Below are positions 11,138 to 64,000 of a DNA stretch of 64,000 nucleotides, piece by piece; within the stretch, counting starts at the first letter, position 1, and the number at the start of each line of letters is the position of its first letter. The DNA is taken from the sequence record OQ743992; one strand, given 5' to 3'. A program made the translations under genes and the position numbers. The notes beneath the pieces were generated by a model. The model did not search any database, was not told the DNA's origin, and saw only the letters and a list, made by a program, of their open reading frames with translations. This DNA comes from Escherichia phage vB_EfeM_pEP20.

Positions 11138-11950
11138 TTAGTGCAGTTGGTCACTAGTAATCTGTGATTGCTCTTTTTCAGCCATAGCTGAGACTTGCTT
11201 CACAAAATCGTCACCAAAGTTAATGCGCAGTTTTTCTTCAATGATTGAAGCGCCAATGTTTACCAAAACATCATTGATTGCTTGCATACTGACACCACCA
11301 GTCATCTCCTCAACGAACTCAATGGTTACCCCCAACATCTGAGAAAGTTGGATTAGTGCAACGATATTCATCATTGTAGAGATAGCTGGAATCATCAGAG
11401 CAACCTTCACCTGTAGCGGTTCTACATCAGCTACAGAGTCATCTTTCACAGCTTCTGCTAAAGAGTCTTTAGTTTGCTGGATAATCTCTTTGATTCGTGG
11501 GTTTAACTCTTCTACACCCCAATCAAGTTTTTCATATCGTGACAGCTTCTCTTCCATTCGCTTCTCAAGAGCAGCCATAACAGCACTTGTTGACGAAATT
11601 AACAGGTCAACTAGCTCATCATAACCTAAGAGCAGTAGTGAGTCTTTTTCTTCAGAGGTCATGGCAATATAGTCATTTTTCTGCATCTCATAGAAAATGA
11701 ACTCTGCAAGAGCATCAACACCTACAACGATAGATGCTAAAGCAAGTGTTTTATCACACAGCATCATATTAACCTGTTCTGCAAAAGCACCGTTATCAGA
11801 CTTGTCTTTAGGCAAGTTATAGCTTGCAGGCATAAACTGTTCTGTGTAGTTGTTTCCACGAAGAATCATAGCCATGCTTTCTACGGCATTGATTAAGAAT
11901 GCTTCGCCAATACCTTTTTCTTCAAGCATCTGGTCTACAGTAGTGTTCAT
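11138..11950 (-). CDS. hypothetical protein (270 aa)
   Basis: Track ORF. Confidence 0.5.
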   Translation of the reverse strand: MNTTVDQMLEEKGIGEAFLINAVESMAMILRGNNYTEQFMPASYNLPKDKSDNGAFAEQVNMMLCDKTLALASIVVGVDALAEFIFYEMQKNDYIAMTSEEKDSLLLLGYDELVDLLISSTSAVMAALEKRMEEKLSRYEKLDWGVEELNPRIKEIIQQTKDSLAEAVKDDSVADVEPLQVKVALMIPAISTMMNIVALIQLSQMLGVTIEFVEEMTGGVSMQAINDVLVNIGASIIEEKLRINFGDDFVKQVSAMAEKEQSQITSDQLH

Positions 11951-12374: not shown

Positions 12375-12550
12375 GTAAGCCTCTTTTAAGTAACTATTAA
12401 GTTTTAATCTTTTATCTTAACGTATTCTATACGTTATACTTTAAAGCTTTTTAAAAGCTATTAAATAATCTTTTAAGAGTTTTAAAGTATCTGTATAGTT
12501 AAACTGTTAAGTAACCTTTTAAGTAAAAACCCACTTCGCAAAGATTAACA

Positions 12551-12572
12551 CCTTGTCAAGTACATTGTCAAC
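12551..12572. promoter_or_regulatory. conserved 22-mer CCTTGTCAAGTACATTGTCAAC (first copy) in divergent intergenic region upstream of DNA polymerase
   Basis: Tandem TTGTCAA half-sites 12 bp apart; TATAAT at 12581-12586. Confidence 0.45.
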
Positions 12573-12631
12573 TTGCTTTTTATAATTTTTTGCAGTAATG
12601 TATGAGGTTAATGATTTTAGAGGGAGTAAAA

Positions 12632-14815
12632 ATGGAAAACGTAGATTTTAAAAACTTACATTTAGTTGGTGATACAGAAACTGATGGTTTACTCCTTGAG
12701 TTCACTAAAGTACACGTAATGGCTTTCGCAGACTATAAATCTGACGATGAAGAGCCACCTGTATGGGTCTTTACAGATGAGCCTATCCTCGGTCACAAGT
12801 ATACCAAGTACATTAAGGGTGGTTTGCGTGAAGGTGTTGAGTTTGCGTTAAAGGCAAAACGGCTTTGCATCCATAATGGTCTGGGTTATGACTGGTGGGT
12901 TTTCAATCACATTGCACCTGATTTATGGAACTTTGATAATCCAAAGTGTAAGCCGTGGAGTAATTTCTTTCAGGATTCTCTTATCCAGTCTCGTGTTCAG
13001 TGGATGGATAGACCAACTCCAAAAGGCTATAAAGGTGCTCATGGCTTGGCAGCGTGGGGTGCTCGTGTTGGTGTTCGTAAACCAGAGATTGAACATTGGG
13101 GTGTGTGGAATGCAGAAATCTTCACTCGTGTTGTAGAAGATATCCGTATTAACGCCAAAACTAAACGTGCACTGGATAATGAATATCTCAAACTTAAGAA
13201 GTGTGGTATAGACACTTATGAAACCTATATGAGAGCTAAAGAAACATCTTTCTGGATGAGTCAACAAGCTATCAATGGTTGGAAAGCTGATAAAGAGCTT
13301 ATGGAGTTCCATGTAAAGGAACTTGACAAGTTGACTAATGAGCTTGCTTCAGAAGTTGAACCACATCTTCCTCCAACTATTAAGACCAAAGGTAAAGTCA
13401 CTGGAGAAGAGTTTGCAAAAGCTTGGAATGAATATGTTGAAACATTCGGTCATGCAGATGGACTGAAGAGAATTACAAAGTACCCTAAGACGAAGTATCG
13501 CCAACAGGTACGTAACGGTGAGATGCAGACATACGAAATCAAGCCATTTGGGAAGCCAACTACAAAGATTTTTAACATTGAAAAGCGGAATTGCTATACA
13601 CCAACCAACTCCGTAACTGGTGAAGAGTACAAGGAAGGTTTTGTAGCAATGAAGGATGCTCGTGCAATTTGCAATGAGTTGAATGCAAAGATTGGTAAGA
13701 AGTGCAAAGACTGGAAGCCAGTAAAAACAGTTAAAACTGTGAAGTACTATAACAGCCATGTTGTTAACCACTTTGAACTTGAGTCAAGTCGCTACACAGG
13801 TTTGATTGATGCACCATATACACCAATTGAGTTCGAAGTTTCTCGTATGACTCAGGTAGCAGTTGTTAAAGACTACTTGAAATCAGTTGGTTGGATTCCA
13901 GATGACTGGAACTACAAGAAAGACTCAGATGGTCGTCCTGTTAAGGTTTGTCGCTTCAAAGACAACAAAAAGATGATTACAAAACATCCTAAGTGGGATG
14001 AGATGGTGGAACGGTGTGGTTTGAGTTATGTTGAACACGAAGGTGTCCAGTACATTGAACATAACTGGTCTGTTAAGAAGTACACAGATTTGCTTGAGCC
14101 TTGCTTAATCCGTACTTCACCAAAACTTACTGAATCATCTTATGACACGATTGAAGGTGAGCTTGGACAGAAGATTGCGAAATACTATACTTTGATGCAC
14201 CGACGTAGAACTATTGAGAACTCAAAAGATGATGAAAAAGGTTGGTTGAACCAGATTCGTCCTGATGGTCGCCTTAGTGCTGGTGCAATGGTGTTTGGTA
14301 CTTCAACTGGACGTATGACACAATATGGTATTGTAAACGTGCCGTCTGGTGCTGCTGTCTATGGAGCACCTATGAGGGAGGTCTGGACTTGTGAAGAAGG
14401 TACTAATATTGTTTCAGCCGACATGAATAGCGCCCAACTTGTGCTACTGTGTAACTTTATGGGCGATAAAGATTTCACTAAAGCGGTGACAGAGGGTAAA
14501 GAAGAGGTTGAATTTGTCAAACAAGAGGATGGTAGATACTATTGCAAACATTTTGACCAGTATCTAAACCCAGCTATTGACAAGTATTTACATTATGATT
14601 CTGAAAATGACTTATACGTGGTGTACTCAGGGACTGATGCACACACTTTGAATAGTATCTACTTCAGTCTTAATAAAGAGGAAGACATCTTGACATGTCG
14701 AGCTACTCAGGATACAAGTCTTCTTCAAGAAATTAGTAAAGGTCGTAAGAAAGCCAAAAATGGCATCTATGCGTCAGTGGCGCATGTAAAACGTTGTGAA
14801 TTGCTGGAAGCCTAA
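12632..14815 (+). CDS. DNA polymerase (family A), N-terminal segment: 3'-5' exonuclease domain and polymerase domain up to the O-helix
   Basis: ATG at 12632 preceded by AGGGAG. Exo motifs (LVGDTETDGL, HNGLGYDWW). Ends in RKKAKNGIYA, the first half of the PolA O-helix; the reading frame then runs into a stop. Confidence 0.8.
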   Translation: MENVDFKNLHLVGDTETDGLLLEFTKVHVMAFADYKSDDEEPPVWVFTDEPILGHKYTKYIKGGLREGVEFALKAKRLCIHNGLGYDWWVFNHIAPDLWNFDNPKCKPWSNFFQDSLIQSRVQWMDRPTPKGYKGAHGLAAWGARVGVRKPEIEHWGVWNAEIFTRVVEDIRINAKTKRALDNEYLKLKKCGIDTYETYMRAKETSFWMSQQAINGWKADKELMEFHVKELDKLTNELASEVEPHLPPTIKTKGKVTGEEFAKAWNEYVETFGHADGLKRITKYPKTKYRQQVRNGEMQTYEIKPFGKPTTKIFNIEKRNCYTPTNSVTGEEYKEGFVAMKDARAICNELNAKIGKKCKDWKPVKTVKTVKYYNSHVVNHFELESSRYTGLIDAPYTPIEFEVSRMTQVAVVKDYLKSVGWIPDDWNYKKDSDGRPVKVCRFKDNKKMITKHPKWDEMVERCGLSYVEHEGVQYIEHNWSVKKYTDLLEPCLIRTSPKLTESSYDTIEGELGQKIAKYYTLMHRRRTIENSKDDEKGWLNQIRPDGRLSAGAMVFGTSTGRMTQYGIVNVPSGAAVYGAPMREVWTCEEGTNIVSADMNSAQLVLLCNFMGDKDFTKAVTEGKEEVEFVKQEDGRYYCKHFDQYLNPAIDKYLHYDSENDLYVVYSGTDAHTLNSIYFSLNKEEDILTCRATQDTSLLQEISKGRKKAKNGIYASVAHVKRCELLEA

Positions 14816-17016: not shown

Positions 17017-17253
17017 ATGTGGAAAGCAGTAATTACACTTGGTGTTATTTTTCTAACTGGCTGCAACCCTTCTTATGAAGATAAGAATGCTTCTTATAGC
17101 CTCCCACCAGAAATGCAAGATTGTAAGGTCTATAAGTTACATGGTGATGCCATAAGCAGAGATATTGTTGTTGTCAGATGTCCAAACTCTCAAACAACAA
17201 CATCTTATAGCTATGGCAAAAATGGTCAATCACACACTACTGTTATTGAGTGA
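17017..17253 (+). CDS. putative lipoprotein (78 aa)
   Basis: Signal peptide with lipobox (VIFLTGC); RBS AGGAGA upstream. Confidence 0.5.
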   Translation: MWKAVITLGVIFLTGCNPSYEDKNASYSLPPEMQDCKVYKLHGDAISRDIVVVRCPNSQTTTSYSYGKNGQSHTTVIE

Positions 17254-17263
17254 GGTTTTCAAG

Positions 17264-17470
17264 ATGGAAGTCCTAGTAAACTATATCTATTGTTATGATG
17301 TTGTTCACTCCACTACAACCGTAGCTCAACGTAATCCAATCGTCCCACGAGAAGGTGAGTTGGTTCGCATCGAGGGTTGGACTTACACTGTGGGAAGCAT
17401 CATTCATAAGTTTGATGTTGCTGGTGATGTTCAAGTTATCGACGTAGAGATTGGTGGTAAGAGAAAATGA
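17264..17470 (+). CDS. hypothetical protein (68 aa)
   Basis: ATG at 17264 chosen over the overlapping longer track ORF (17165). Confidence 0.45.
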   Translation: MEVLVNYIYCYDVVHSTTTVAQRNPIVPREGELVRIEGWTYTVGSIIHKFDVAGDVQVIDVEIGGKRK

Positions 17471-17658
17471 ACAAAGAAGACAAGCATAAAAATGCTGTAC
17501 GAACTCCTGATGGAAAGGTTCAATCCTTCATCCTGACAGTTGGTGGAAAGCCGTTTCGTTGCCACTGCGGAGCAAACTGTTTTCATAAACCAGATAAAAA
17601 TGACTTAGAGCTTTACGCATGTAATGCTTGCAATACTTGGTATCACTCAGAGGAATAA
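17467..17658 (+). CDS. hypothetical cysteine-rich (zinc-finger-like) protein
   Basis: 63 aa with CHCGANC...CNAC cysteine pairs. Confidence 0.45.
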   Translation: MNKEDKHKNAVRTPDGKVQSFILTVGGKPFRCHCGANCFHKPDKNDLELYACNACNTWYHSEE

Positions 17659-18797: not shown

Positions 18798-18839
18798 GAG
18801 CAGCATAAACCAACTGGTACTCACCAGCATCACTTAAGA

Positions 18840-19140
18840 ATCTTTAAGAGGGGTTTTTAAGTGAGGTATGGTAAGGCGCGGTGAGGTCAGGTAATGTGAT
18901 GTTTGGTTTGGTGCGGTGATGTGCTGTCCGGTAATGTCCGGTGCGGTAAGGTATGGGTAGTTAGTCTCAGCTACATTAAAATGAAACTTACCTTTTTAAA
19001 AGGTCTTTAAGAGGGTTTTTTAATAAGGTCTGGTGTAGTAGGGTTGGGCATGGTATAGTCCGGTGTGGTGTGGCACGGTATGGGTGGATGGTAGTAGCCA
19101 CGTTAAAAATCTACCAAGTTTCTAAAGAGTCTTCTGTTGA
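18840..19140. repeat. GGT-periodic repeat block R1 with conserved flanking modules
   Basis: About 300 bp non-coding with GG spaced every 6-8 nt and conserved modules (AAGGTCTTTAAGAGGGTTTTT header, GGTATGGGTAGTTAGTCTCAGCTACATTAAAATGA tail) shared with R2. Confidence 0.6.
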
Positions 19141-20230: not shown

Positions 20231-20257
20231 GGTAGCCTCTTCGGAGGCTCCTTTTTA
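20231..20257 (+). terminator. rho-independent terminator
   Basis: Hairpin AGCCTC-TTCG-GAGGCT followed by CTTTTT. Confidence 0.6.
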
Positions 20258-20259
20258 AA

Positions 20260-20520
20260 AGGTCTTTAAACAGGGTCTTTTAATAAGGTGCGGTGCTGTC
20301 CTGTTCTGTAGTGTCTGGTAAGACCTAGTAATGTTCGGTCAGGTATGGGTAGTTAGTCTCAGCTACATTAAAATGAGACTTACATCACTTAAGAGTCTTT
20401 TAAGAGGGTTTTTAAGTGAGGTGTGGCACGGTAATGTTAGGTAGGGTCAGGTCAGGTCAGGTGAGGTAAGGTAAGGTAATGTATGGAAGGATGGCAGTAG
20501 CCTTATAAAAAATCTGCCAA
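20260..20520. repeat. GGT-periodic repeat block R2 (second copy of the R1 module family)
   Basis: Same headers and tails as R1 in swapped order, with GGTCAGGTCAGGTCAGGTGAGGTAAGGTAAGGTAATG. Confidence 0.6.
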
Positions 20521-20995: not shown

Positions 20996-21208
20996 ATGGC
21001 TCTTAAAAAGTTACATCCCAGAAGCGGTTATGGTAAGATAATTGATGATACAGATGGCTTTACAGTCTTTACAGTTATCTGTCAAGATGATTCACAGATT
21101 GAGAAGACTCTTGATGATTATCTTAACGATGTACGTGAAAAGGTTAGGGCTACAAACATAGATTCATTGATTGACACTTCACGTAAACGGAAGAAGAAAG
21201 ATGAATGA
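20996..21208 (+). CDS. hypothetical protein (70 aa)
   Basis: Track ORF. Confidence 0.4.
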   Translation: MALKKLHPRSGYGKIIDDTDGFTVFTVICQDDSQIEKTLDDYLNDVREKVRATNIDSLIDTSRKRKKKDE

Positions 21209-21500
21209 GGTTTTTGACCCTTATGCTCCACAAGATGGTTGGGAGGCTGACAGAGAGGCTGAAATGGAGAGTTATATTTGTCCAATGGATGTAGACGAAA
21301 TGAGAGATTTCGTTGCACATCGTTTTAAGAGAGAGATTAAATCCAGAGGTCTTTCTCAAGAGCAAGTTGCTAAAATTTGTGGTATCTCTCAGGCTCGTGT
21401 ATCCAACATAATTAATCTCACTGGTAATGTCTCTCTTGAGTTTATGTTGGAAGTATGTGAAAAATTTGGTGTTAATTTTAATTTAAGGCTGGCAGATTAA
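21201..21500 (+). CDS. putative helix-turn-helix DNA-binding protein
   Basis: ATG at 21201; LSQEQVAKICGISQARVSNIIN resembles an XRE-type HTH. Confidence 0.5.
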   Translation: MNEVFDPYAPQDGWEADREAEMESYICPMDVDEMRDFVAHRFKREIKSRGLSQEQVAKICGISQARVSNIINLTGNVSLEFMLEVCEKFGVNFNLRLAD

Positions 21501-21501
21501 T

Positions 21502-21861
21502 ATGAAACGTGAAAACATTATCCACTCTGAAAACTTCGCATTAGGTTTTTATGGTGTACCGACTCACCTTGAAAAGTATTATGGTGTGAAGATTCTTTCC
21601 AATCTCATTATGGCTTACAAAGATGGTAAGATTAAGCATACTGAGAAGAAACGTGTCATGGGTTATATGGCTGTAGGTTCAGCAATCTCTAACATTAAGC
21701 TGGAAACAACTAGCAGTCAGATTGTAAAAGACCACTTCATCAAAGAGCTTTACCAGAATCTTGATGGTGTAGATGTTCAGGCTGTTTGGCTGGATGTTGA
21801 TGGTCACAACTACACAAGTTTCGTTTTCAAAAACGATGACATTAAGTGTCTGTTCCCATAA
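21502..21861 (+). CDS. hypothetical protein (119 aa)
   Basis: Track ORF. Confidence 0.45.
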   Translation: MKRENIIHSENFALGFYGVPTHLEKYYGVKILSNLIMAYKDGKIKHTEKKRVMGYMAVGSAISNIKLETTSSQIVKDHFIKELYQNLDGVDVQAVWLDVDGHNYTSFVFKNDDIKCLFP

Positions 21862-44052: not shown

Positions 44053-44552
44053 TAATTAAACCTTACTTTTTGTTTAAGGACTGTTGAATGGTTACCAGAT
44101 TCATCTACCACATTTACAATCATATCATATACTTTACCTTTGACAAGTACTTTGTAATCATTTTGTGAAAAAATGTATTCAAGTCTGTTTGTTTCTTTAT
44201 TAACTGTCATTGGAGATTGAAATGCAGTGTCGAGGGTAATGAAAGCGGCTTCAATGCTATTAACATTGATACGTTTATTCTCGCAGTTATATAACTTTAC
44301 ACCCAAAAGGCATGAACTGTCAAATGGAATTTTAACAATTTCACTACAATTTCCTGAAATAAACGGTTTACCACTCATTGGTGCATCAAGTAACCTACAA
44401 ATAGTGAAAACGTCAGAGATTCCACCATCACTAACATAACCTGAAAGGCTGACCCTTGAGCCAGCCTCTACAGATAACTTATCAGTAATGATAAGGACAC
44501 CCCTATACGAATGCACTCGTGTAGCATTTGAAATAGAGATAACTTCAGCCAT
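44052..44552 (-). CDS. hypothetical protein (166 aa)
   Basis: Track ORF in head module. Confidence 0.45.
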   Translation of the reverse strand: MAEVISISNATRVHSYRGVLIITDKLSVEAGSRVSLSGYVSDGGISDVFTICRLLDAPMSGKPFISGNCSEIVKIPFDSSCLLGVKLYNCENKRINVNSIEAAFITLDTAFQSPMTVNKETNRLEYIFSQNDYKVLVKGKVYDMIVNVVDESGNHSTVLKQKVRFN

Positions 44553-49440: not shown

Positions 49441-49998
49441 TTACTTTCTTAGTGGATGAATAAAGAATGCCAACATAACTCTTTCCCTTGAGAATGCTCT
49501 TTCTTCTGGGACAACACTTTTTAGTTTCCATCCAATATAAATTCTCCAGTAAAACTGTTTACCAAAGACTTTAATTGATGGGATAAAAGCGAATAATCCC
49601 CAAGCATTACTGTTCCACATTAGGAGATAACCAGTCTGATTATCTTCAGGGTCAGAACTTACGTTGATATTACCTTTCCACTTAGTAACATCTTTTACAT
49701 CTCTTCCTAATACATGGTAAGAGAAGTTATAAGCTTTGTTTCTCCAGAGCCATCCAACTCTCTGCATATAAACACCAAGCTTACCAATCTTTCTAATCTT
49801 AGCCCATCTCTCAACGTGGCCTTTGTCACCATCAATCGGGTTGTCATAGGTCTCCATCCATCTGAATCCAAAAGGTAGATGCCCTTTCTTCTCGCTGTAG
49901 AATGGAACCACAAATGGTGCTAAGATTACTGCTAAGATTGCTGCAAATGGTTCTAGCAAAGCTAGGAAAATCCATGAAGCATATTTTAAATATCTCAT
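49441..49998 (-). CDS. hypothetical membrane protein (185 aa) inside tRNA array
   Basis: N-terminal hydrophobic helices (IFLALLEPFAAILAVILAPFVVPF). Confidence 0.45.
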   Translation of the reverse strand: MRYLKYASWIFLALLEPFAAILAVILAPFVVPFYSEKKGHLPFGFRWMETYDNPIDGDKGHVERWAKIRKIGKLGVYMQRVGWLWRNKAYNFSYHVLGRDVKDVTKWKGNINVSSDPEDNQTGYLLMWNSNAWGLFAFIPSIKVFGKQFYWRIYIGWKLKSVVPEERAFSRERVMLAFFIHPLRK

Positions 49999-53356: not shown

Positions 53357-53475
53357 AAACTCTATGTAACCACTTTAACATTATTTTTTAGTGGTTGTCA
53401 AGAACTTTTTTTAAAATATTTTTCAGTATCTTAGAAAAGCTCTCATTTCGTTTCTATGTAGAACATATTAAAGGG

Positions 53476-53501
53476 TATTAAACACATTGTCAATACCCTT
53501 T
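53476..53501 (-). terminator. hairpin downstream of the Ro60-like gene (terminator or promoter-overlapping operator)
   Basis: Minus-sense GGGTATT-GACAATGTGTTT-AATACCC followed by TTTAATAT; the same stretch contains TTGACA, so it may be a promoter for the tRNA array instead. Confidence 0.35.
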
Positions 53502-54927: not shown

Positions 54928-55007
54928 ATTTTACTCTCTTCTCTCATTGTTGTTTGATGTGACAGACTTTAGAGCAACTTTGTAGAGTCTGTCAACACCT
55001 TTTAAAA

Positions 55008-55379
55008 TTATTTTTTAAGAGTCGCTACAGCAGAGAACGTTGGTTTGTTATCTGTCTGAGGCTGACCACCATTATCAGGGGTCTTCTTAGTGTCTGCTGC
55101 AATTGCTTTCATCTCACCTGCTGAGTGTGTCATGATAGTTTTACCAGCTTCCATCATCGACTTTAGGTTTACATCGTCAGTCGTCAAACCAAACTCTGCA
55201 AGCTTAGCAGCATCCCTTGTAACAATCGCCTCAAACAACTTTGCAGCAAACTCAGCAGAATTATCAATGGTCAGTTGAGCTTTTACGAGAGAGCTTTTGT
55301 TACGTGAGCCTTTCGGTCTTCCAGATGGGTTTCCGGACTGGCCTTTTTTAAACTGGCCTTTGTTTGTTCTGTTTTTCAT
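55008..55379 (-). CDS. hypothetical basic protein (123 aa)
   Basis: Track ORF with Gly/Lys-rich N-terminus (GNPSGRPKGSRNK). Confidence 0.45.
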   Translation of the reverse strand: MKNRTNKGQFKKGQSGNPSGRPKGSRNKSSLVKAQLTIDNSAEFAAKLFEAIVTRDAAKLAEFGLTTDDVNLKSMMEAGKTIMTHSAGEMKAIAADTKKTPDNGGQPQTDNKPTFSAVATLKK

Positions 55380-55508
55380 TGGTATGCCTCTTATAAGACC
55401 TCTTAAAAGGCTTTTAAGATAAAAGATAGATATCCAGAAAGATATCTGTTTAAATAGCCTTTTTAGAGGAACCTTTTAAGTTATCTTCTAAGTATTTATA
55501 AGCCTACA

Positions 55509-55530
55509 CCTTGTCAAGTACTTTGTCAAC
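55509..55530. promoter_or_regulatory. conserved 22-mer CCTTGTCAAGTACTTTGTCAAC (second copy) in divergent intergenic region
   Basis: Matches 12551-12572 at 21 of 22 positions; reverse complement carries two TTGACA boxes. Confidence 0.45.
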
Positions 55531-55620
55531 AACTTTTTTAACTTGCAATAGTTCTTGACTTGTTGTATGGATTACTGTACCATCTTACTTAAAGCTGTAG
55601 GTCTGCCTTGTTCTACAAAG

Positions 55621-55790
55621 GAGACTTAATGAGAAAATCAAATAAACCGAAGAAAGGTAAGAATACCAATCACTGCAAGGAATCAAAAAGGGTAGAGTTA
55701 ATCTACTATTCATCCTCTGAAATTGGTCTGTACCTGTTCTTTCAAAATTACAGAAGACAAGAGGATTATCTATGTGTAGTTCCCAATTAG
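55621..55790 (+). CDS. hypothetical small basic protein
   Basis: ATG at 55621 after AAGGAGA; shorter than the track ORF. Confidence 0.3.
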
Positions 55791-62818: not shown

Positions 62819-63376
62819 ATGATAGATATGGAAAAAGATAACTTAAAAGAAGTTGAAGGCAACTACCTAGTCCTTGATTGGAGTGATGTGCAAGAAGCTC
62901 TCTCCAAAGAGAGTCTTAGCATACTAGAGCAACTTATCTTCTCAGTAAGGCATATCAGAGAAGTTAAAAATGGTAAAGAGCCATTAGAAGGAATCTTTGT
63001 AGAGAAGTCTTATCCGTTCTATGAAGACACTTTGCAGAAAGTTAAGATGTACTTTAAACAGAAGAATCGTAAAGCGGTCACTATGGTATCTCTTGGTGGA
63101 CAGAGCATGTCTGTGATGGAAGATATCAACCCTAAGAGACCGAGTAAAGGTGTTTGTATAAAAATCACAGGTCATGAAGAGTATATCTCAGTGGATGACT
63201 TTAGTTTATTCTGCAATGGTTCTTGTGTCTTTAATGGTTTTCACTATGATATCCGAGTGTACCCAATCAAGGGAGATGATATCATGATGCAGGTATTCGA
63301 TAATAACAATGGATTTACTCATTTTTATCAGACAACCAAGTCATCATTGAAAACAGTTCTGGAAACACTGATTTAA
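62819..63376 (+). CDS. hypothetical protein (about 185 aa)
   Basis: ATG at 62819 chosen; the track start at 62783 overlaps the upstream gene. Confidence 0.45.
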   Translation: MIDMEKDNLKEVEGNYLVLDWSDVQEALSKESLSILEQLIFSVRHIREVKNGKEPLEGIFVEKSYPFYEDTLQKVKMYFKQKNRKAVTMVSLGGQSMSVMEDINPKRPSKGVCIKITGHEEYISVDDFSLFCNGSCVFNGFHYDIRVYPIKGDDIMMQVFDNNNGFTHFYQTTKSSLKTVLETLI

Positions 63377-63385
63377 AATATCTTA

Positions 63386-63412
63386 AGAGCCTCCTTAATT
63401 GGGGGCTTTTTA
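63386..63412 (+). terminator. rho-independent terminator candidate
   Basis: Hairpin GAGCCTCC-TTAATT-GGGGGCT followed by TTTTTAATTTTT. Confidence 0.5.
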
Positions 63413-63479
63413 ATTTTTATAAAATTTTATCGGTTGTCCCAACCTCTGGGTCACCATCATATGTGAATAAAATATCTAT

Positions 63480-63760
63480 CCTTCTTAACAGCCTTCTTAA
63501 TCTTACTCTCTATATAGTTATATAGTACTATATAGTATCTTAGTAACTATCTAGTGGTCTTAATAGCCCCTCTGTATAACCCTTCTAAATAGCCTTCTAA
63601 CAAGCCCTCTAATAAGCCTTCTAAACAACCTATACAATCACCTTAACCACCTCTCTATAGCCTCTTAGAAGCCCCTATACACCTCTTAATCTCTATGTCA
63701 GCTATGTTACCCTCTATAGGTGTTCACTAGGTGTTACTAAGCCTCTATATAGACTGTTTT
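63480..63760. repeat. cluster of short direct repeats (iteron-like) in non-coding right edge
   Basis: CCTTCTTAA x2, TATATAGT x3, (A)GCC(T/C)TCTAA(N)A x4, CTCTATAG x3, followed by an AT-rich stretch. Confidence 0.55.
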
Positions 63761-64000
63761 AACAAACTTAACAGGAATATCTTTACAGACCTTATCTCAC
63801 AAGGTCTAACACGGTACTAACAAGGTATCTTATAAGCCTGTTTATACCTGTATTTTTAAAAGGCTGTATAGGTAATTATTCAGAATTTTAAAATTTTTAT
63901 AAAATAGGACTATCAAGTCATTTTTTAGGGTCTTTGAAGGAACTGAAAAATATCTGTAGAGTTGATTCGGTAGAATCTACCTCATGATGTATATCTGCTT

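Follow-up and report, generated by a model that had tools for sequence, protein, structure and literature searches.

Strong phage early promoters such as T7 A1-A3 are of the canonical E. coli sigma-70 -35/-10 type. The Pho box and sites of the OmpR/PhoB type are built from direct repeats with a fixed period of 11 bp. At late promoters of the lambda PR' type, a second -35-like element is read by sigma region 4 within a sigma-dependent paused complex. Such sigma-dependent pausing is the subject of PMC3326312. The nearest described relative of the locus studied here belongs to Salmonella phage Felix O1, the genome of which comprises four transcription units with divergent junctions at genes 40/41 and 96/97 (PMC3185647). 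A promoter, P41, was predicted there as TTGACA(N15)TATAGG at 21515-21541 (Whichard et al. 2010, PMC3185647), and nothing homologous to it was found in the 96-97 region (PMC3185647). Felix O1 encodes no RNA polymerase, and the start of its transcription and the temporal control were stated as not understood (PMC3185647). Furthermore, the genomes of Felix O1 and VpaE1 give infectious phage in E. coli cell-free TXTL (PMC10933291). Since phage is produced in TXTL and no phage RNA polymerase is encoded, the host sigma-70 holoenzyme must recognise the first promoters. No transcription start site, transcriptome, RNA polymerase footprint or reporter data for Felix O1-like phages were found in the searchable literature.

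Here, a stretch of 64,000 nucleotides from Escherichia phage vB_EfeM_pEP20 (record OQ743992), referred to below as the window, was analysed computationally. It belongs to a Felixounavirus: many genomes of this genus share 97-99% identity with it, about 250 phage records matching, and after reverse complementation the window runs collinear with Salmonella phage Felix O1. Felix O1-like sequence of 98-99% identity over the queried regions is also present in GU169904 (Staphylococcus phage SA1) and MG065664 (Campylobacter phage A132), both of which bear the names of unrelated hosts and are probably chimeric or contaminated entries.

The repeated element and the two divergent regions

On the + strand, positions 55509-55530 of the window read CCTTGTCAAGTACTTTGTCAAC. 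When the whole window was scanned for this 22-mer with up to three mismatches, two matches were obtained, namely 55509-55530 itself (0 mismatches; copy 2) and 12551-12572 (1 mismatch; copy 1), compared with a mean of 0.00 in 100 dinucleotide-preserving shuffles. The single difference between copy 1 and copy 2 is A for T at position 14. Identity of the copies runs three nucleotides further to the left (ACA), giving a shared 25-mer from 55506 and from 12548, ACACCTTGTCAAGTAC[T/A]TTGTCAAC, for which only two matching sites, in the 40/41 and 96/97 regions, exist in the whole Felix O1 genome. A motif relative with three mismatches, TTGACAAGTACTTTGTAATC, is located at 44140-44159 (+) within the ORF of a structural gene and is most likely a chance match.

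According to the ORF and tRNA maps, both copies lie on the + strand in divergent intergenic regions, 12375-12632 and 55380-55628, which are the only two such regions of the window. The former separates a 140-aa ORF on its left from the DNA polymerase gene on its right, the latter a basic 123-aa gene on its left from small genes on its right. On the minus strand the 22-mer comprises two perfect TTGACA hexamers, box A and box B, 12 bp apart from start to start, and the arrangement TTGACA-N6-TTGACA occurs within the window only at the two copies. Perfect tandem TTGACA boxes with gaps of N4-7 number 2 in the window versus 0.185 in shuffles, of which 4/200 reach 2. An earlier note on this DNA had described a 22-mer at 55509-55530, one base removed from 12551-12572, placed it in the divergent region between the basic-protein gene and the small-gene block, and read two TTGACA boxes on its minus strand; the repeat (0 matches expected by chance), the intergenic location and the boxes, both of them perfect hexamers, were all confirmed.

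The P41 prediction of Felix O1 maps exactly onto the 22-mer on the minus strand of the window (GTTGACAAAGCACTTGACAAGGTATAGG), and the 96/97 region of Felix O1 carries the twin-box element after all (GTTGACAATGCACTTGACAAGGTGT). Moreover, host-type promoters are annotated at both copies in the GenBank record of AYO145A (NC_028825). The present element agrees with Felix O1 P41 and the AYO145A annotation in the DNA element itself, its genomic position (the gene 40/41 divergent region), its strand and its -35 hexamer. The agreement ends at the -10 hexamer: the one given in the Felix O1 paper, TATAGG at 15 nt, is not conserved (TGTAGG in the window), whereas the conserved -10 found here is TAGGCT at 17 nt. 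The N17 assignment is better than N15 because the N15 hexamer has A at -11 in Felix O1 only, and comparison of the sequences suggests that the published -10 of P41 was probably mis-assigned. Both predictions were made in silico, and in neither PMC3185647 nor the AYO145A record are the second TTGACA and its conservation remarked upon.

Proposed leftward promoters, leaders and first genes

The 22-mer of copy 2 reads GTTGACAAAGTACTTGACAAGG on the minus strand and would provide the -35 hexamer together with the upstream two thirds of the spacer of a leftward promoter. In the direction of transcription, the proposed order is an A-tract, box A, a 17-nt spacer holding box B, the -10 TAGGCT and a start near 55494. 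The A-tract, TTAAAAAAGTTG on the minus strand (55531-55546), is UP-element-like; at -40 to -46 a run of four to six A is kept while the flanking bases vary, and the tract may be taken as an UP element. Box A (55524-55529), the proposed -35, matches TTGACA at 6/6 positions and is separated by 17 nt from the proposed -10 (55501-55506). Box B, TTGACA extended to TTGACAA (55512-55517), occupies the spacer at about -23 to -18. Standard sigma-70 geometry predicts that transcription would begin at 55493-55495, 6-8 nt past the -10. From this start a structured leader of ~115 nt would lead to the first gene, with the Ro60-like gene and the tRNA array beyond.

Copy 1 (12551-12572, minus strand) would be the core of a paralogous promoter, its spacer 18 nt long and its -10 of the extended type, directed leftward to the 140-aa ORF, which is the homologue of Felix O1 ORF97, the dNMP kinase gene and the primase/helicase block. 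Its box A (12566-12571), again the -35, is located 18 nt from TAATCT, and box B (12554-12559) lies in the spacer; each is invariant in 27/27 sequences. The extended -10, TGt-TAATCT (12542-12550), is formed by the TGn at 12548-12550 and the hexamer at 12542-12547. In Mooglevirus it becomes TGgTAGTCT or TGtTAGTCT, in which TG and TAnnnT are kept and other bases change.

At both copies box A offers the full -35 consensus, and a hexamer with T-12, A-11 and T-7 follows after 17 nt in copy 2 and after 18 nt in copy 1. The elements are intergenic, 115-160 nt upstream of the first gene at copy 2 and of the ORF97 homologue at copy 1, and face these genes. The weak point is the -10, where TAGGCT and TAATCT match the consensus at just 3/6 positions. 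In a sigma-70 PWM scan of the window with 3131 candidate sites, the copy 2 promoter (P41) ranked 13th and the copy 1 promoter (P97) 36th. Canonical sigma-70 promoters are alike in the perfect TTGACA, the 17-18 nt spacer, TAnnnT, the optional TGn and the upstream A-tract; the leftward promoters differ from them in the extra invariant TTGACA at about -23 to -18 and in a -10 that is weak outside its three key positions. Like promoters of the T7 A1-A3 type, they are predicted to be read by the unmodified host polymerase when infection begins.

For comparison across relatives, copy 2 regions were collected from 28 IMG/VR contigs, and copy 1 regions from 21 contigs together with phiSUSP1, Michonne, Sf14 and AYO145A. 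On the minus strand TTGACA-N6-TTGACA was kept in all 27 available loci of copy 2 and all 25 of copy 1, in addition to the window and Felix O1. It can be observed in the alignments and the per-position table that among Felixouna-, Susp- and Mooglevirus relatives box A, box B (TTGACAA) and the upstream A run are invariant, whereas between the boxes 4 to 5 of 6 bases vary (TAC, TCC, TGC, TCA, AGG, CCC). The hexamer 17 nt from box A at copy 2 appears as TAGGCT, TAGCCT, TAAGTT or TAGTGT, with T-12, A-11 and T-7 fixed and the middle three bases free; that 18 nt from box A at copy 1 is either TAATCT or TAGTCT and follows directly on TGt or TGg. Functional positions are invariant over three genera with about 15-30% DNA divergence. 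Fixed boxes and a fixed T-12/A-11/T-7, combined with free variation in the gap separating the boxes and at the centre of the -10, are the signature of a leftward sigma-70 promoter. Overall, the 22-mer is likely, with a probability of about 0.75, to be the core of a leftward sigma-70 promoter used by unmodified host RNA polymerase. An IMG/VR scan for TTGACA-N6-TTGACAA-N2-TGT returned at least 120 matching contigs, mostly unrelated, and was uninformative.

RNA polymerase would start at both copies, and both leftward promoters appear to be of the early class. By end-point RT-PCR, ORFs 41, 42, 96 and 97 are maximal at 25 min, not 5 min, so a simple 'early' label is a poor fit.

Each copy would be paired, back to back, with a rightward promoter distinct from it, and these pairs would make up the two divergent control regions of the genome. 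For the small-gene block, the promoter scan gave TTGACT-N17-TACCAT at 55555-55583 (+), which ranks 17th in the sigma-70 PWM scan and is invariant in 8/8 aligned lineages. For the DNA polymerase gene, TTGCTT-N17-TAATGT at 12573-12601 (+) lies back to back with box A of copy 1 and is kept in Mooglevirus as TTGCTT-N17-TAGGGT. Because these conserved rightward promoters lie outside the 22-mer, the 22-mer is assigned to the leftward promoter. The TATAAT at 12581-12586 was discarded as a -10; it is wrongly spaced (10 or 22 nt from the TTGTCA boxes) and not conserved, the position reading GAAACT, GAAGAT or GAAGAA in other genera.

The first gene downstream of copy 2 (55008-55379, minus strand) encodes the basic 123-aa protein, a DUF5681 member (Pfam PF18932, E = 7e-14) corresponding to Felix O1 ORF41. 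phiEa21-4, Zyzzx and P778 have homologues in the corresponding place, and the gene is the conserved first gene after the leftward promoter in all Ounavirinae examined. Further promoter-like sites are located downstream of it at 54995, 53493 and 53401, and a terminator-like hairpin (53470-53501, minus strand), the counterpart of t42/t43 in the Felix O1 paper, follows the Ro60-like gene. The loop and stem of this hairpin hold the -35 TTGACA of a promoter for the tRNA array (TTGACA-N17-TAATAT), so that 53470-53501 looks like an overlapping terminator and promoter. Because they have promoter-like sites of their own, the Ro60-like gene and the tRNA array need not rely on the leftward promoter alone. 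The earlier note's suggestion that the 22-mer could also serve leftward transcription toward the Ro60-like gene and tRNA array is supported in part. Its minus-strand reading is backed by the comparative data and by P41, which makes transcription to the left, into the DUF5681 gene and on toward the Ro60-like gene and tRNA array, the likely function. Box A has a conserved -10 at proper spacing, but box B has none, and the intervening promoter-like sites and terminator-like hairpin qualify how far transcription from copy 2 would account for these genes. The rightward or two-way role that the note had implied for the 22-mer is not supported, given the conserved rightward promoters outside it.

Similarity between the two copies continues, with gaps, into paralogous leaders. 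In the ~115-nt leader of copy 2, a long hairpin at 55390-55480 (minus strand) has arms formed by CTTAAAAG/CTTTTAAG boxes and stops directly ahead of the DUF5681 Shine-Dalgarno sequence. Its MFE is -28.4 kcal/mol (z = -2.43), the consensus contains 33 pairs, one of them compensatory, and the leader is 87-90% identical to those of other genera. The AT-rich leader of copy 1, ~160 nt in length (12375-12536, minus strand; z = -2.05), has boxes of the CTTAAAAG type, and within it a small hairpin at 12418-12436 shows two compensatory pairs in Mooglevirus. Leader boxes amount to 18 copies versus 5.5 +/- 2.5 in shuffles and are clustered within the window only in the two leaders. Conservation of the intergenic regions, 81-90%, is equal to or higher than the 68-86% of flanking coding DNA. 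A search against Rfam returned tRNAs only and nothing at the leaders. Such leaders may act as a translational operator, an RNase III-type site or an unwinding element.

Clusters of the leader box (CT[TA]AA[AC]AG) were also observed in a gene-less region of 1.2-1.6 kb at the convergent junction of several Ounavirinae, at whole-genome coordinates 12584-13332 in Felix O1, 17164-17404 in phiEa21-4, 17484-17564 in Arno18 and 49626-49664 in Zyzzx. About 63100-64000 of the window forms part of this region, which may be a non-coding RNA locus or an origin. Elsewhere in the window, two intergenic cassettes of about 100-200 nt, at 18828-19100 and 20253-20490 (+), are repeated 1.4-1.5 kb apart and contain arrays of GGT-rich 6-7-nt units (GGTAAGGTCAGGTAATGT and similar) with flanking hairpins from CTTTAAGAGGGTTTTT boxes.

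Alternative readings and the second TTGACA

The repeat itself might be a neutral relic of recent duplication or gene conversion, as the sharing of 24/25 bases within Felixounavirus, including the flanks GGTGT that are dispensable for promoter function, would suggest. Key positions are, however, invariant across three genera and in Zyzzx, where the neighbouring gene product has fallen to 58% protein identity, and the spacer variants differ between the two copies of one genome (GTAC/GCAC, GGAC/GTAC, GTAC/GCGC and others). Because these variants are not shared within one genome, no conversion between the copies is ongoing, and a functionless relic is extremely improbable. Concerted evolution of the copies, which GCAC in both copies of Felix O1 and GTAC in both copies of the window might have indicated, was rejected in the same comparison, in which other genomes mix GTAC, GCAC, GGAC and GCGC. 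A role on the + strand, with TTGTCA as a -35 or with the 22-mer supplying the rightward genes (the small-gene block and the DNA polymerase gene) with an UP or activator site, draws on the 5/6 match of TTGTCA to the consensus, on TTGTCA-N18-(TGc)AATAGT detected by the promoter scan in copy 2, and on the location of the copy 1 boxes at about -42 and -52 of the rightward TTGCTT promoter. It is nevertheless quite improbable, for neither TTGTCA of copy 1 has a TAnnnT at 16-18 nt, the offset from the rightward promoters changes from about -42/-52 at copy 1 to about -63/-75 at copy 2, and the better-conserved rightward promoters are found outside the 22-mer. Promoter and AT-rich leader could also form a transcription-primed replication origin in which the 22-mer is the origin promoter. 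In T4 oriF/oriG and the T7 primary origin a promoter is followed by an AT-rich unwinding element, and the leaders here are AT-rich and at least as conserved as the flanking genes; copy 1 is flanked by the DNA polymerase and primase/helicase blocks, the sign of the GC skew switches at exactly 12.4 kb and 55.4 kb, and the box clusters recur in gene-less regions of relatives. The skew is uninformative on this point because its switches coincide with those of transcription direction, and a conserved leader hairpin ending at a ribosome-binding site fits the role of a structured 5'UTR equally well, which makes the origin unlikely.

With the leftward sigma-70 promoter as the preferred reading, the behaviour of box B is left to be accounted for. 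It is invariant although the spacer position it occupies is normally sequence-tolerant, and in the alignments it is clearly under purifying selection. An invariant TTGACA in the spacer goes beyond what ordinary promoter function explains. The arrangement TTGACA-N4..7-TTGACA with TAnnnT 17-18 nt from the first box recurs in Zyzzx, Felix O1 and phiEa21-4. Hafnia phage Zyzzx, the DUF5681 protein of which is 58% identical to that of the window, has perfect twin boxes at both homologous promoters, with gaps of N4 and N5 and TAnnnT 17 nt from the first box. A third twin-box promoter-leader cassette is found in Felix O1 at 11269-11460, upstream of ORF22 and outside the window, in which TTGACA-N7-TTGACA is followed by TAACTT 17 nt from the first box. 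In phiEa21-4, two twin-box sites (N6) occupy non-homologous places, one before rIIB and one facing the gene-less region. Against dinucleotide shuffles, perfect tandem boxes number 3 versus 0.215 in Felix O1 and 3 versus 0.23 in phiEa21-4 (0/200 shuffles reach 3 in each case), and 2 versus 0.185 in Zyzzx (1/200 shuffles reaches 2). Whole-genome scans of Arno18 and P778 gave single boxes at the homologous promoters, P778 having two TTGACA as an inverted pair that serves the two divergent promoters. Because these two phages have single boxes, box B is dispensable for promoter activity as such.

Two explanations of box B compete with a second contact for the polymerase. Tandem leftward promoters, with box B as the -35 of the second and a start ~12 bp further downstream, would make use of its perfect TTGACA and of a TATAAA found downstream in Felix O1-type genomes, and TTGACA...TATAAA is indeed annotated as a promoter in the AYO145A record. 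This TATAAA, however, is separated from box B by 11 nt and from box A by 23 nt, has no T at -7, and is replaced by TAATAA in other genera. At eight sites examined, no conserved TAnnnT was found 16-18 nt downstream of box B, the hexamers there being TACTTA, AAGTGG, ACATGG, TTGTAG, GATGGT, AGGGTT and GGGGGT. Box B was rejected as the -35 of a second promoter for want of a conserved -10, and tandem promoters are accordingly regarded as very improbable. The twin boxes could instead be an operator, besides or in place of a promoter element, which is compatible with the promoter reading: a phage or host protein would bind TTGACA twice, occlude the -35 and spacer, and switch off the paralogous promoters (P41, P97 and P22 of Felix O1) after the early phase. 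Such a model would give a purpose to an invariant box B that plays no part in standard sigma-70 recognition and lacks a matching -10. It also suits the restriction of the element to a small set of paralogous promoter-leader cassettes and the unexplained temporal control of Felix O1 (PMC3185647), and an XRE-type HTH protein is encoded in the window. Two copies of the recognition unit, TTGACA(A), are present and both are invariant, but the spacing expected of a direct-repeat operator is not fixed: gaps are N4, N5, N6 and N7 among Zyzzx, the window, Felix O1 and phiEa21-4, and start-to-start distances of 10, 11, 12 and 13 bp among orthologous and paralogous sites are unusual for a fixed dimeric operator. 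Moreover, conservation is confined to TTGACA without its flanks, which is what sigma region 4 reads. The search for a binder gave none. The sole HTH protein recognised in the window, of 109 aa and XRE-type (HTH_3; 21171-21500, +), has its counterpart in Felix O1 ORF85, which carries the annotation 'transcriptional regulator'. It is absent from P778 and without a homologue in the twin-box phages phiEa21-4 and Zyzzx; for lack of co-occurrence with the twin boxes it was set aside as the box binder. DUF5681 is found in all Ounavirinae examined, including P778 with its single boxes. It was considered as binder and as small terminase and set aside, with no PDB sequence match and a low-confidence single-sequence AlphaFold model of pLDDT 60.5; the small terminase subunit of Felix O1 was not identified in the Felix O1 paper (PMC3185647). 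Overall, an operator is a possible but tentative reading.

Comparison with known systems bears on the same question. As at lambda PR', a second TTGAC(A/T) downstream of the true -35 could be contacted by sigma region 4 once polymerase has advanced, but for that mechanism a -10-like pause element is needed in the initially transcribed region, whereas the hexamers N16-18 from box B have no conserved A-11/T-7. In common with Pho box and OmpR/PhoB-type sites, the + strand shows a direct repeat of TGTCA overlapping the -35 region; the period differs, being 12 bp here and 10-13 at related sites, the unit is exactly TTGACA and the flanks are unconserved. A T4 MotA-dependent middle promoter (MotA box TGCTTtA centred at -30) was rejected, the -35 here being a perfect TTGACA and TGCTT occurring on the opposite strand only, within the rightward TTGCTT hexamer. 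IHF, Pho-box, sigma-32, sigma-54, MotA-box and lambda PR'-type readings were compared with the sequences by eye and none fitted.

A second TTGACA-specific contact at box B is favoured on sequence grounds, because just the hexamer of sigma region 4 is conserved and nothing around it. Unconserved flanks and a box period of 10 to 13 bp argue for a sigma region-4-like contact over a rigid dimeric operator, although a flexible repressor covering the -35 and spacer might also act there. Box B could offer sigma region 4 an alternative place to dock or, together with box A, form the target of a shut-off factor. A more speculative and rather doubtful proposal is that twin boxes and structured AT-rich leaders constitute a dedicated Felix O1-like regulatory cassette, with box B as an early shut-off handle for a phage factor, or with the cassettes doubling as transcription-primed origins. 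If the shut-off reading is true, the switch would be aimed at twin-box promoters only, of which Felix O1 has three paralogous cassettes; if the origin reading is true, origins would be located at the two divergent junctions of the genome.

Significance for Felix O1-like phages

The host-type promoter at copy 2 is already known as the predicted P41, and the finding is in that respect an ordinary one. What the sequence comparison adds is the N17 assignment of the -10, the presence of the cassette at both divergent junctions and at a third site in Felix O1, and the strictly conserved second TTGACA. Felix O1 is the classic Salmonella typing and biocontrol phage, and the likely core of both leftward promoters at the divergent control regions of its genome has now been located. 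The conserved duplicated -35 hexamer and the paralogous leaders provide concrete targets for mapping of transcription start sites and for mutagenesis. For phage engineering and cell-free rebooting, both leftward promoters are the ones most likely to launch the programme.
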